Assembly (NCBI RefSeq): GCF_988243305.1
Contig: NZ_OZ547137.1
DNA: 64,000 nt
Strand: one strand, 5' to 3'
From: a plasmid
Shown here piece by piece: positions 57,580 to 60,845 of the stretch. The position numbers and the translations under genes were made by a program. The notes under the pieces were generated by a model, which saw only the letters and a list, made by a program, of their open reading frames with translations, ran no database searches and was not told the DNA's origin. Every line of letters begins with the position of its first letter. The stretch's first letter is position 1.

Positions 57580-58005
57580 AAATGAACTGCCCGGGAATCC
57601 TGGAGACTAAACTCCCTGAGAAAGAGGTAAACAGGATGACTAAAAATACTCGTTTTCCCCCGAAGTCCGTCATAGGGCGATTCGTATGGTTCTGGAAAAT
57701 CAGGGCGAATATGACTCACAATGGGCGGTAATTTGTTCCATTGCCCCAAAGATTGGCTGTACACCGGAGATTCTGCGTGTCTGGGTTCGCCAGCATGAGC
57801 GGGATACCGGGGGCGGTGATGGAGGGCTCACCACCGCTGAACGTCAGCGTCTGAAAGAGCTGGAGCGTGAAAATCGTGAACTGCGCCGCAGTAACGATAT
57901 CCTTCGCCAGGCTTCCGCTTATTTTGCGAAGGCGGAGTTCGACCGCCTCTGGAAAAAATGATGCCACTGCTGGATAAGCTGCGTGAGCAGTACGGGGTCG
58001 GTGGA
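57580..58005 (+). mobile_element. IS629/IS1203-like fragment with frameshifted orfA, truncated in orfB
   Basis: Left end TGAACTGCCCGGGAATCCTGGAGACTAAAC; orfA has a T/C homopolymer frameshift relative to the 48063 copy; orfB start MPLLDKLREQYGV, then truncation. Confidence 0.6.
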
Positions 58006-58085
58006 TTTGCCCCTATATTTCCAGACACCTGTTATCACTTAATCCATTACTGACCTGCTGCCGTAGATATTCCCGTGGTAAGCTT
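58005..58085 (-). repeat. IS2 right-end fragment (about 80 bp); direct repeat partner of 60590-60670
   Basis: GGATTTGCCCCTATATTTCCAGACACCTGTTATCACTTAATCC... shared by both copies. Confidence 0.55.
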
Positions 58086-58235
58086 TATCCTGAGGAGTTT
58101 AAAGTTGAAGCTGTCAAACAGGTTGTTGAACGTGGCGATTCAGTTAGAACAGCAATCAACTATTGCTATAATAATATCTATTTTTTGTTTTATTTTGTTT
58201 TAGCATGTAAAAATTTAGAAACAGGAGGTGTATAA

Positions 58236-58386
58236 TGATTGATATAGTTACATATGTAATGAATGCTGATTTTGATAATATAATCAAAATAGCCTCAGAT
58301 ATGGATTTAAGTCTAATAAAAGATATTGTGCGAGAGACTCAGGAGGATATCAATAGCAATGGACCTGCATGGAGTTCTTGGTCATA
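58236..58386 (+). CDS. Candidate small ORF (50 aa) with strong Shine-Dalgarno
   Basis: AGGAGG 6 nt upstream of ATG; MIDIVTYVMNADFDNIIKIASDMDLSLIKDIVRETQEDINSNGPAWSSWS. Confidence 0.3.
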
Positions 58387-58889
58387 AATATAGTATCTGA
58401 CAATGTCAATGGCATGCATAAATGTCGTTATTATAATGACACTATGGATGTCATTGATAATAAAATAGAGTCTATTTATCATTCTGTGTAAATGCCTTTT
58501 CTTAGAAATGACCGTCAAGGCAATCACTAAACTTGATAATAAAGCGGCTCATCGCCATGATGACATTCCTTAAGGGGTATTGCCCATTTCTGTAACGCTA
58601 CCGGGATGACACCGCTTTTTACTAACTCATCTGTCGGTAACACCCTGTGTTTCTTGATTGAGTGACGGATCACACTGTTCAGCGATTCAATGGTATGGTC
58701 GTATAAATCACCTTATGAAGCTCCTGCGGATAACGCGGCTCCCATACACCTCTGAACGTCTCCGGCGCCTGAGGGACAGCGTCTTCGGTTGGAGCCAAGT
58801 AAACAGCTTTAAGACCTCGTGTTACCGTCACGGGCAGAATATAGAATTCAACAAATTGAATACATAACCCTCAAATGCACCATCATATA

Positions 58890-59429
58890 CTAAATCAATA
58901 AATTGGTATAATTACTCTCATTCAGGAAAGCATTTTTAATATATGGGAAACAATAGACGAACCAACGAGAAAAAGCATCGTTATTGAATTTTATTTCAGA
59001 ACTTAACTCTGTCAAGGAAACATATTTATAACTCATAGCTTCCAAACTATTTAAATCTGGTTCATCATCACTAATACCATAGAAAATATGTGCAATCTCA
59101 TGTTCTGTTAAATCACCGCCGACATAAACATTATAGTAGATCTTTAATAGTTTAGATAAGGGGCATTCTATCCCCATTTCCTCCCTTAATCTTCTGTTAG
59201 CTGCAGATAAATTCGATTCACCCGGGAAGGGATGTGTACAAGAGGTATTGCTCCAAAGGCCGGGAGAATGATATTTTCCAAGTGCTCTTTGCTGTAACAA
59301 TAATTTTCCATCGCTATTACATATATAAACAGAAACAGCCCGATGTAAAATACCTTTTTTGTGGGTATATAATTTTTCGGCAATCCCCGTTTCACAATCA
59401 TTATGGTCAATTAAAATAACATTCTCCAT
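58890..59429 (-). CDS. idi: Isopentenyl-diphosphate delta-isomerase (type 1, Nudix fold)
   Basis: 179-aa ORF; LHRAVSVYICNSDGKLLLQQRALGKYHSPGLWSNTSCTHPFPGESNLSAANRRLREEMG aligns with E. coli Idi motifs as recalled. Confidence 0.75.
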   Translation of the reverse strand: MENVILIDHNDCETGIAEKLYTHKKGILHRAVSVYICNSDGKLLLQQRALGKYHSPGLWSNTSCTHPFPGESNLSAANRRLREEMGIECPLSKLLKIYYNVYVGGDLTEHEIAHIFYGISDDEPDLNSLEAMSYKYVSLTELSSEIKFNNDAFSRWFVYCFPYIKNAFLNESNYTNLLI

Positions 59430-59432
59430 AAA

Positions 59433-60461
59433 TTACCCCTGTTGTGACAGAAAAAAATGTAATTCATCTCTAACTGCTTTAAATGAATCCAATTTGTCTT
59501 TTGTTTTTAATGACATTCTTTCAATAACTTCTAACCATGATTTTAGAGGATGATTTATTTTTTTTACAGCAGTAATGATATCTTCAACATATTTATTAAT
59601 GAGATCCTCGCATCTTTCAATACCTCCACCGAGATAAAACTTAAGGAGCACAGCTTTTTCCACATTCTCATCAATACGTTCAATGATCTTACCATCAGAA
59701 ATCCAAGGGTAGAAATGCGATGGTTGCTGCTTTTGTATGTCTTCCATTATATCGAGAACATCATCCTGAAGGGTAAGATACATAATAAAGCTTTTCATCA
59801 TATTATCAAACTGATGTGTTAACTCTTGTTTTTTTATAATATGAAGAACCATATCGCTAACAAGTAAATGCAGTATAGATTTTCCAACTGCGTACTTTTT
59901 AAACGCCCCCTCATCCATGCCTATTAATGGTGAAATATCTTTTTCCATTAACATGGTGTTAACATACTCGTTAAAACGACGATTATAAAAAGCATAGAAA
60001 CTACTAGGCTCTATAAATATTTTTGAGGCAATATTATTAATTTCTACATCTATTATTTGCAAATAATACCCAAGATATTCTTTCTTTAAATCTCCCATGT
60101 TTCTTGAAATTAGTTGCTCGTACTGTTCATCGACAAAGAGGTCTGTGAGGATTGCCCTTCGGGCAATAAGCGTTGATATAATACCGACGTATCTTATCCT
60201 TTCAATATACTGTCCTTTATCATGGAGATCACTTATAAATAAAAATGGCATAAAATAGTAAAAAGGGTAAACATTCAAAGGCTCAAATAATGATTCTAAT
60301 TCTTTGAATGGATATTTTAATCTAATTTCTTTTAGAGTCCTAAAGTAAAAAATGATGTCAGTATACCTTATTGTTTTTCGATTATAATTAATAATATCCA
60401 TTGTGTCATTAAAATAACGACGTTTATGCATGTCATTAAAACTATCAGAAACTACTTTCAT
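59433..60461 (-). CDS. Isoprenoid-synthase-like protein (342 aa), function unknown
   Basis: Aspartate-rich LQDDVLDIMED resembles a prenyltransferase second Asp-rich motif; translationally coupled to idi; low GC. Confidence 0.5.
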   Translation of the reverse strand: MKVVSDSFNDMHKRRYFNDTMDIINYNRKTIRYTDIIFYFRTLKEIRLKYPFKELESLFEPLNVYPFYYFMPFLFISDLHDKGQYIERIRYVGIISTLIARRAILTDLFVDEQYEQLISRNMGDLKKEYLGYYLQIIDVEINNIASKIFIEPSSFYAFYNRRFNEYVNTMLMEKDISPLIGMDEGAFKKYAVGKSILHLLVSDMVLHIIKKQELTHQFDNMMKSFIMYLTLQDDVLDIMEDIQKQQPSHFYPWISDGKIIERIDENVEKAVLLKFYLGGGIERCEDLINKYVEDIITAVKKINHPLKSWLEVIERMSLKTKDKLDSFKAVRDELHFFLSQQG

Positions 60462-60589
60462 TTATTACCTTGAGCTCCATTACATATAAAACTATATTAA
60501 AAACCAAAAAATTATTTTATCTATAAAATCAAATGATAAATCAAAACAAAAAAAATAATAGATATTATTATAGCAATAGTTAATTGCTG

Positions 60590-60845
60590 TTTGGATTTGC
60601 CCCTATATTTCCAGACACCTGTTATCACTTAATCCGTTACTGGCCTGCTGCCGTAGATATTCCCGTGGTGAGCGATAACCCAACGCACTATGCGGATGCC
60701 ATTCGTTATAATGCTCGAACGCCTCTGCAAGGTTCTTTGCTGCCGTTAACCCGTCTGGTTTGGGCATGACACTGATGGTAAGCGTAAACTGACCGCCGTA
60801 TGTAGCCATTAAGCCAGTATTGGTAACGTAGGTGCCCACCTTTTC
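60590..60845 (-). mobile_element. IS2 3' fragment (orfB C-terminus plus right end)
   Basis: ORF 60603-60839 gives ...[40 protein letters not shown]...DNRCLEI. Confidence 0.6.

Follow-up and report, generated by a model that had tools for sequence, protein, structure and literature searches.

Three lineages of enzymes with an isoprenyl diphosphate synthase (IDS) fold prenylate tryptophan in ribosomal peptides, namely ComQ, PalQ and the P domain of ChrPC (PMC13290415, PMC10853753), and all characterised trans-IDS-like prenyltransferases target tryptophan (PMC13290415). In the ComQ/ComX system of Bacillus subtilis, an IDS-superfamily enzyme is encoded beside a precursor of about 50-58 amino acids (aa) with a tryptophan near its C-terminus (PMC5331326, PMC10853753); ComX precursors proper measure 53-58 aa, and the modified tryptophan stands 3-4 residues from the C-terminus (PMC5331326). 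PalQ, which comes from the PalQ/PalX system of Paenibacillus alvei, has the IDS fold in a highly divergent form, as does the P domain of ChrPC-type fusions of a prenyltransferase with a cyclase, and both have been misannotated as terpene or polyprenyl synthases. A comparable layout of enzyme and precursor is described here for ORF3 and a 50-aa open reading frame (ORF), together with the isomerase gene idi, in a stretch of 64,000 nucleotides (64 kb, called the window below) from plasmid contig NZ_OZ547137.1 of assembly GCF_988243305.1. The window belongs to a pAA plasmid of enteroaggregative E. coli (EAEC) of the AAF/I type (aggregative adherence fimbriae I), and it is 100% identical to such a plasmid.

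Taken together, these genes are best read as a split, AggR-controlled system resembling those of peptides that are synthesised ribosomally and then modified post-translationally (RiPPs), in which ORF3 is predicted to be a ComQ/PalQ-like peptide tryptophan prenyltransferase. On balance, this reading is probable, if by no means secure. The ORF3 system would then be a ComQ/PalQ-type system that has diverged, is coupled to idi and resides in a Gram-negative host. The genes and the module are known; relative to the literature searched, what seems new is the logic of the operon and the chemistry proposed for it.

By sequence comparison, the 50-aa ORF is the conserved first gene of what was probably an ancestral three-gene operon. 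The comparison drew on seven divergent loci from E. coli and Salmonella, in which ORF3 shares only 59-76% protein identity with its window counterpart; the gene order in all seven is peptide gene (50-52 aa), ORF3, Nudix/idi. In six of them, the stop codon of the peptide gene runs into the start codon of ORF3 or directly adjoins it, with an overlap (ATAATG; TCATAATG) in the Salmonella loci and adjoining codons in the locus L006. Within the window peptide, a helical leader is followed by the C-terminal sequence PAWSSWS, and PAWSSW(S/A) ends the peptide invariantly in every one of the seven operons, including the Salmonella homologue, MQLHDVVNFIGLVDFEHLTQVVSGVDLDVLKNIVHNAQEGMQVNNPAWSSWS. The leaders diverge, with nonsynonymous differences (pN) of 0.23-0.46 and synonymous differences (pS) of 0.28-0.81, and the core is conserved despite synonymous changes in its Pro, Ala and Ser codons. 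Differences among 12 full-length E. coli peptide variants are likewise confined to the leader. Between the window and EAEC strain 042, the pN/pS ratio is 0.40 for the peptide gene, 0.10 for ORF3 and 0.06 for idi. The 50-aa peptide is the likely substrate of ORF3. An earlier note on this DNA had pointed to the small ORF, with its strong Shine-Dalgarno (SD) sequence, on the opposite strand just upstream; the SD (AGGAGG at 58223-58228) and the strand are as described, but the gene lies beyond the 3' end of idi and converges with it. As an aside, the invariant W-S-S-W-S tail coincides with the eukaryotic WSXWS motif of cytokine receptors and with the WxxW motif of C-mannosylation, a coincidence that is probably due to chance, yet striking in a peptide of a virulence regulon.

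Enzyme and peptide genes are also retained together when they are physically apart. In PLSDB, all ORF3-bearing plasmids (57/57) carry the peptide gene, and in eight of them it lies 26-78 kb away from ORF3 (NC_008460.1, which is pO86A1, CP091392.1, AP022816.1, AP022812.1, CP056605.1, PP261911.1, PP261912.1 and PP261916.1). Rearrangement has pulled the peptide gene and ORF3-idi apart in these eight plasmids, yet neither has been lost; in pO86A1 the peptide gene adjoins aatD and ORF3-idi adjoins aap. The peptide ORF is intact even though the ORF3 stub that adjoins it has decayed, a pattern that favours a product acting in trans over a leader ORF that works in cis only.

The second component, ORF3, is a divergent enzyme whose kinship emerges from profiles and structure. 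Direct searches of Pfam, NCBIfam and the PDB with its sequence returned nothing meaningful; the PF00348 model gave no ORF3 match at E<=10 and reached E<=0.001 in only one of 13 members of the ORF3 family. The family profile, by contrast, matches heptaprenyl diphosphate synthase of S. aureus (5h9d) with an E-value of 2e-6. ORF3 has two motifs, D107-x3-D111-E112 and Q232-DDVLD-IMED241, and the DDxxD-like LQDDVLDIMED singled out in the earlier note occupies residues 231-241. In the 5h9d alignment, D107-x3-D111 falls on the first Asp-rich motif (FARM) and QDDVLD on the second (SARM). The second motif is invariant, whereas the first is reduced to D107-x3-D111-E112 and departs from the canonical DDx2-4D. 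D107, D111, K194, D233, D234, D237 and D241 are all invariant, remote relatives included. Chain-elongating IDSs are the best structural neighbours, and ORF3 belongs to the all-alpha IDS fold; its neighbours in the AlphaFold database also include many Paenibacillus proteins of about 311 aa. For the comparison by structure and hidden Markov model (HMM) that the note had proposed, the outcome is that the fold is that of an isoprenoid synthase (trans-IDS) and that the Asp motifs are conserved.

Relatives of ORF3 numbered 13 in a word-indexed search of 5.8 billion proteins, and an exhaustive HMM search of 1.84 billion representative proteins produced only 12 matches. The remote relatives P0019-P0023 scored hmmsearch E-values of 2.7e-5 to 2.8e-7, computed for the whole library; by informal inspection, an 'FPxxSxFW...R' segment is common to the remote relatives and the PalQ family. 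One of them, P0020, has its IDS-like domain fused to a squalene-cyclase-like (SQHop_cyclase) domain; after its gene come one for a RiPP-type HExxH metalloprotease and one for a 66-aa peptide, which combines a typical leader with a core that contains Trp. This fusion and RiPP layout is the architecture described for ChrPC (PMC13290415). The P0019 and P0021 loci have comparable small-ORF or protease neighbours, and the locus of the closest outgroup, P0015, contains no recognisable Trp-tail peptide or idi.

The third gene, idi, is predicted from its sequence to encode a bona fide type-1 isopentenyl-diphosphate (IPP) isomerase. The protein exceeds the cut-offs of two NCBIfam models, NF002995 (139.3 bits against 127) and TIGR02150 (109.2 against 105.8), and in a HMMER alignment with E. 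coli Idi (1NFS) the residues H25, H32, C67, H69, E87, Y104, E114, E116 and W161 are all conserved. The catalytic and metal-binding roles of these residues are established for E. coli Idi. The assignment to Nudix-type Idi made in the earlier note is therefore borne out by both comparisons. The same note had called idi translationally coupled to the 342-aa ORF: the spacing is indeed close, but the genes do not overlap, as three nucleotides lie between them (TAA-TTT-ATG). Its broader description of the pair as an isoprenoid or terpenoid module stands as far as the isoprenoid-synthase fold and a genuine Idi are concerned, although a free terpenoid module is probably not what these genes encode.

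Regulation ties the two halves of the system to the virulence regulator AggR. When a site WWWWWWWTATC is required 21-23 bp upstream of a -10 element, only six strict matches are found in the 64-kb window, and the peptide promoter and the ORF3 promoter each contain one. The others lie at 45105 (+), 46535 (-), 52764 (+), which is the characterised aap promoter, and 54559 (+), which falls within aggR. Both window promoter sequences equal the predicted AggR promoters of EC042_pAA005A and EC042_pAA003 (PMC6392122, Table 1). In RNA-seq of strain 042 ΔaggR, the log2 fold changes were -5.56 for pAA005A, -5.34 for pAA005, -4.54 for pAA003 and -4.13 for pAA004 (PMC6392122). For strain 042, then, the AggR dependence of the pair, raised in the earlier note, had already been published, with regulation taken from RNA-seq and binding sites predicted. 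The IncFII plasmid contig L006 (7770-7850, 13664-14449) carries an intact peptide-ORF3-idi operon. Upstream of it stands an AggR/Rns-like site, TAAATTTATC, followed after 22 nt by TAAGGT, and an AraC-family regulator 26% identical to AggR is encoded 5.6 kb from the operon; site and regulator suggest that Rns-family regulators control the operon on other plasmids as well. The Salmonella operons (L002/L003 13900-15850; L020 5019-7038) adjoin a colicin/immunity/lysis module or a SPATE autotransporter, and these settings are accessory or virulence contexts.

The genes themselves have a history in EAEC research. EC042_pAA003, EC042_pAA004 and EC042_pAA005A on plasmid pAA2 of EAEC 042 are the same genes, with ORF3 DNA 97% identical and with gene order, insertion sequence (IS) IS2 ends and predicted AggR promoters alike; the window plasmid differs from pAA2 in being of the AAF/I type. 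The earlier note gave neither a product nor any biochemical characterisation for the pair, but they are the known ORF3 and ORF4 (pAA003/pAA004), for which mutant phenotypes have been published. Mutants in ORF3 and idi are reported, in secondary citations, to survive defensin and polymyxin less well, and the genes are linked to biofilm (PMC10725161, PMC6392122). Among 21 markers scored in isolates from Mali, ORF3 came up most often (86%), under the label 'cryptic protein' (PMC3256949), and the ORF3 PCR marker of EAEC epidemiology maps to 59609-59729. Labels in the EAEC literature are 'cryptic protein' or 'isoprenyl diphosphate synthase' for ORF3, with pAA005A treated as an unrelated hypothetical protein. 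In the literature searched, the three papers that mention pAA005A each call it hypothetical, and no link between it and ORF3, no product and no connection of EAEC with peptide prenylation has been proposed.

The proposed mechanism starts from an ancestral operon that would have read precursor peptide (50-52 aa), ORF3, idi. AggR is predicted to bind the ATAATAATATC sites located 22 bp upstream of each -10 element and would thereby turn on both transcripts. Idi, whose catalytic residues are intact, would raise the supply of dimethylallyl diphosphate (DMAPP). ORF3 retains the putative allylic-diphosphate/Mg2+ ligands D107, D111, K194, D233, D234, D237 and D241, with a degenerate first Asp-rich motif; it may bind the helical leader of the peptide and prenylate Trp46 and/or Trp49 of PAWSSWS, with a C5 or possibly a C10 or C15 group, as ComQ does to ComX and PalQ to PalX. 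Because the module includes idi, the donor may be C5, or the prenyl supply may be raised in general. The leader would then be cut off and a small lipopeptide released by functions encoded elsewhere. The product would exert its effect at the envelope or extracellularly, a location that would fit how ORF3 and idi mutants are reported to behave towards polymyxin and defensin and in biofilm formation. In an AlphaFold2 (AF2) model of an ORF3-linker-peptide fusion, the leader forms three helices with a predicted local distance difference test score (pLDDT) of 72-85.

Compared with the described systems, this locus shares some features and departs in others. The EAEC peptide is ComX-like in its length of 50-52 aa and in its tryptophans at positions -2 and -5, and the ComQ/ComX and ORF3 systems are alike in having neither a dedicated protease nor a dedicated exporter. 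ComQ matches PF00348 whereas ORF3 does not, and ComQ keeps the FARM without a SARM, the opposite of ORF3 with its degenerate FARM and intact SARM. Relative to comQX, the ORF3 operon has its gene order reversed, with the peptide first, includes idi and resides in a Gram-negative host; no histidine kinase or response regulator, and hence no comP/comA pair, was found in the window block or the related loci. PalQ binds metal through D89/D93 and D200/D204 in D-x3-D spacing (PMC10853753), and this i, i+4 spacing matches D107/D111 and D233/D237 of ORF3. PalX homologues end in a conserved Trp, whereas the EAEC peptide has one residue after its Trp and a second Trp three residues upstream. Unlike PalQ/ChrPC-type precursors, the EAEC peptide has a leader that is not of the NHLP (nitrile hydratase leader peptide) type, as judged by the lack of an NCBIfam match, and unlike those systems ORF3 has no histidine kinase near it.

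Several observations weigh against peptide prenylation by ORF3. The C-terminal core is not confidently placed in the AF2 fusion model (pLDDT <50), so its docking in the active site is neither supported nor refuted by AF2. The neighbourhood encodes neither a leader peptidase nor an exporter or a receptor kinase. Membership of ORF3 in the ComQ family (IPR033965) was rejected, since hhalign of the ORF3-family profile against 12 ComQ sequences gave a probability of 0.9%, and the likeness of ORF3 to PalQ and ChrPC is drawn from their published descriptions. The 57/57 co-occurrence is inflated by the common ancestry of pAA plasmids. Finally, the ribosome-binding site of ORF3 (GGAG inside TGG-AGT) could explain part of the nucleotide conservation in the last peptide codons.

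The strongest competing explanation takes ORF3 for an isoprenyl diphosphate synthase that, with Idi, boosts or alters the prenyl-diphosphate pool, for example for undecaprenyl-linked envelope chemistry, and leaves the 50-aa ORF unrelated. Idi genes often accompany isoprenoid pathway genes, and GGKRxRP is the IPP-binding motif of IDSs. Chain-elongating enzymes as the best structural neighbours, the alignment of both Asp motifs in the 5h9d match, the canonical SARM-like QDDVLD and the envelope-related nature of the polymyxin and defensin phenotypes all suit such a synthase. It sits badly, however, with the absence of a PF00348 match for ORF3 or its close relatives and with a first motif of D-x3-D-E instead of DDx2-4D; moreover, just after the position of GGKRxRP in the 5h9d alignment, ORF3 reads PLNVYPF. 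It also gives no account of the peptide gene, which is conserved and translationally coupled, specifies an invariant tail rich in Trp and is kept in trans; we consider the synthase reading unlikely.

Less likely still is that ORF3 prenylates or cyclises a non-peptide small molecule, either with an aromatic or lipid acceptor as in MoeN5 and Ord1 or as a terpene synthase, with the peptide as a helper or scaffold. The terpene-cyclase form of this idea is disfavoured: class I terpene cyclases were not the closest structural class of ORF3, scoring at most 13.9, and the fold is of the IDS type, not the cyclase type. NCBI names ORF3 a 'class 1 isoprenoid biosynthesis enzyme', and genuine Bacillus ComQ proteins (P0047, P0052) bear the same name, which is therefore uninformative on the acceptor. 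Very improbable is the last alternative, a cis-acting, Trp-codon-rich leader peptide that tunes ORF3 in the manner of TrpL or TnaC and has no function as a product: two Trp codons do stand right before its stop, and in intact operons that stop overlaps the ORF3 start with the ORF3 SD (GGAG) inside the last codons, but in 57/57 pAA-type plasmids the ORF is intact while uncoupled from functional ORF3, with a strong SD and an AggR promoter of its own, and its 50-52 aa, conserved helical leader and pN/pS below 1 are unlike attenuator peptides of 14-24 aa.

Features of the ORF3-idi region and its borders, in window coordinates
Feature	Coordinates	Strand	Description
Peptide gene (= EC042_pAA005A / EC042_RS30880)	58235-58387	+	50 aa, precursor-like: MIDIVTYVMNADFDNIIKIASDMDLSLIKDIVRETQEDINSNGPAWSSWS
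ORF3 (= EC042_pAA003)	59433-60461	-	342 aa, divergent trans-IDS-fold enzyme
idi (= EC042_pAA004, 'ORF4')	58890-59429	-	type-1 (Nudix) isopentenyl-diphosphate isomerase, 179 aa
Peptide promoter	58148-58234	+	AggR consensus ATAATAATATC 58168-58178, 22-nt spacer, -10 TAGCAT 58201-58206
ORF3 promoter	60462-60591	-	AggR consensus ATAATAATATC 60571-60561, 22-nt spacer, -10 TATCAT 60538-60533
ORF3 remnant, second copy	58384-58493	+	about 26 N-terminal codons, start ATG>ATA, truncated
Spacer	58494-58889		GC about 43%, short broken ORFs
Left solo IS2 terminal copy	58002-58090		about 80 bp of IS2 end, repeat D1
Right IS2 terminal copy	60592-60680		repeat D1

In the window, the operon is present as two convergent pieces, A at 58148-58493 (+) and B at 60591-58890 (-). 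Piece A comprises a promoter, the peptide gene and the stub of a second ORF3; piece B has a paralogous promoter, ORF3 and idi, and its peptide gene has been deleted. The peptide promoter is an inverted paralogue of the ORF3 promoter (inverted repeat I1, 76%), and the ORF3 promoter region keeps about nine codons' worth of the 5' end of the deleted peptide gene. Alignment of piece B with the peptide copy reveals an internal deletion of about 120 bp, which corresponds to the body of the peptide gene. The remnant forms inverted repeat I2 with the N-terminus of ORF3 (80% to 60382-60461), where INIVSDNVNGMHKCRYYNDTMDVID stands against MKVVSDSFNDMHKRRYFNDTMDIIN. Since this stub lies 3' of the peptide gene, the peptide gene must once have headed its own peptide-ORF3 operon. 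The remnant also reads as a 40-aa ORF about 60% identical to ORF3 over 26 aa, and it may be the AggR-regulated 'hypothetical' pAA005 of strain 042. The spacer between the two pieces is confined to the ORF3-idi island, occurring in 57/5426 complete E. coli genomes, on plasmids only and in one place each. Its ORF fragments are reminiscent of a transposase C-terminus, but no NCBIfam match bears this out. Terminators were not found in the region.

The earlier note had placed the module between direct repeats of the IS2 end, and the D1 pair does bracket it as an 89-nt direct repeat of 93% identity; its terminal 26 nt are present at exactly two places in the window, where shuffled sequences predict 0. 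The right copy runs on for about 185 bp, taking in the 3' end of IS2 tnpB, before IS66-family sequence replaces it; accordingly, the ORF at 60603-60839 matches residues 245-301 of the 301 in IS2 TnpB, and the next ORF matches IS66 TnpA. On its left side the left copy breaks into an IS629-like orfA fragment, and on its right a 22-codon IS3-family orfA fragment (58081-58147) follows. The same pair of IS2 ends brackets the ORF3-idi module in EAEC 042. Being truncated fragments in an arrangement common to strain 042, these ends are neither a fresh scar nor a composite transposon. The recombination or excision scar suggested previously gives way to truncated IS debris in direct orientation without transposase, and a composite transposon was rejected because only fragments of 89 bp and about 185 bp are present, directly oriented and with no transposase. 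Deletion through homologous recombination between the IS2 ends could occur.

The region as a whole differs from the window in composition, with a GC content of 0.329 at 58091-60591 against 0.482 for the window, so the low GC relative to the plasmid backbone reported in the earlier note holds. So does its placement in one accessory block with aggR, aap and the aat genes, all of which are present in the block around ORF3-idi along with aar and aggDCBA (AAF/I). Both flanks are mosaics of IS fragments: the left one (57582-57961) includes the IS629-like orfA, and the right one (60867-63922) combines IS66-family TnpA with part of a Tn3-family element and a complete ISL3 transposase (62303-63922).

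Carried one step further, the prenylation reading suggests a diffusible, ComX-like, Trp-prenylated heptapeptide with the core PAWSSWS, made under AggR in EAEC and present in some Salmonella, that would serve as a signal or as a host- or envelope-active lipopeptide. This step is tentative and rather doubtful; if true, Gram-negative bacteria would have their first example of such a system, and the overlap of WSSWS with the eukaryotic WSXWS and WxxW motifs leaves room for host mimicry. If ORF3 does prenylate its peptide, peptide prenyltransferases with an IDS fold would gain a third lineage, a very divergent one, for use in biocatalysis. ORF3 is a frequent EAEC marker that has been called 'cryptic' for more than 10 years while its mutants show phenotypes, and the hypothesis gives it a testable function. 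Prenylation would also add a secreted lipopeptide to the AggR virulence regulon, and it would extend Trp-prenylated RiPPs, now described from Bacillus, Paenibacillus and a few others, to enteric Gram-negative pathogens.

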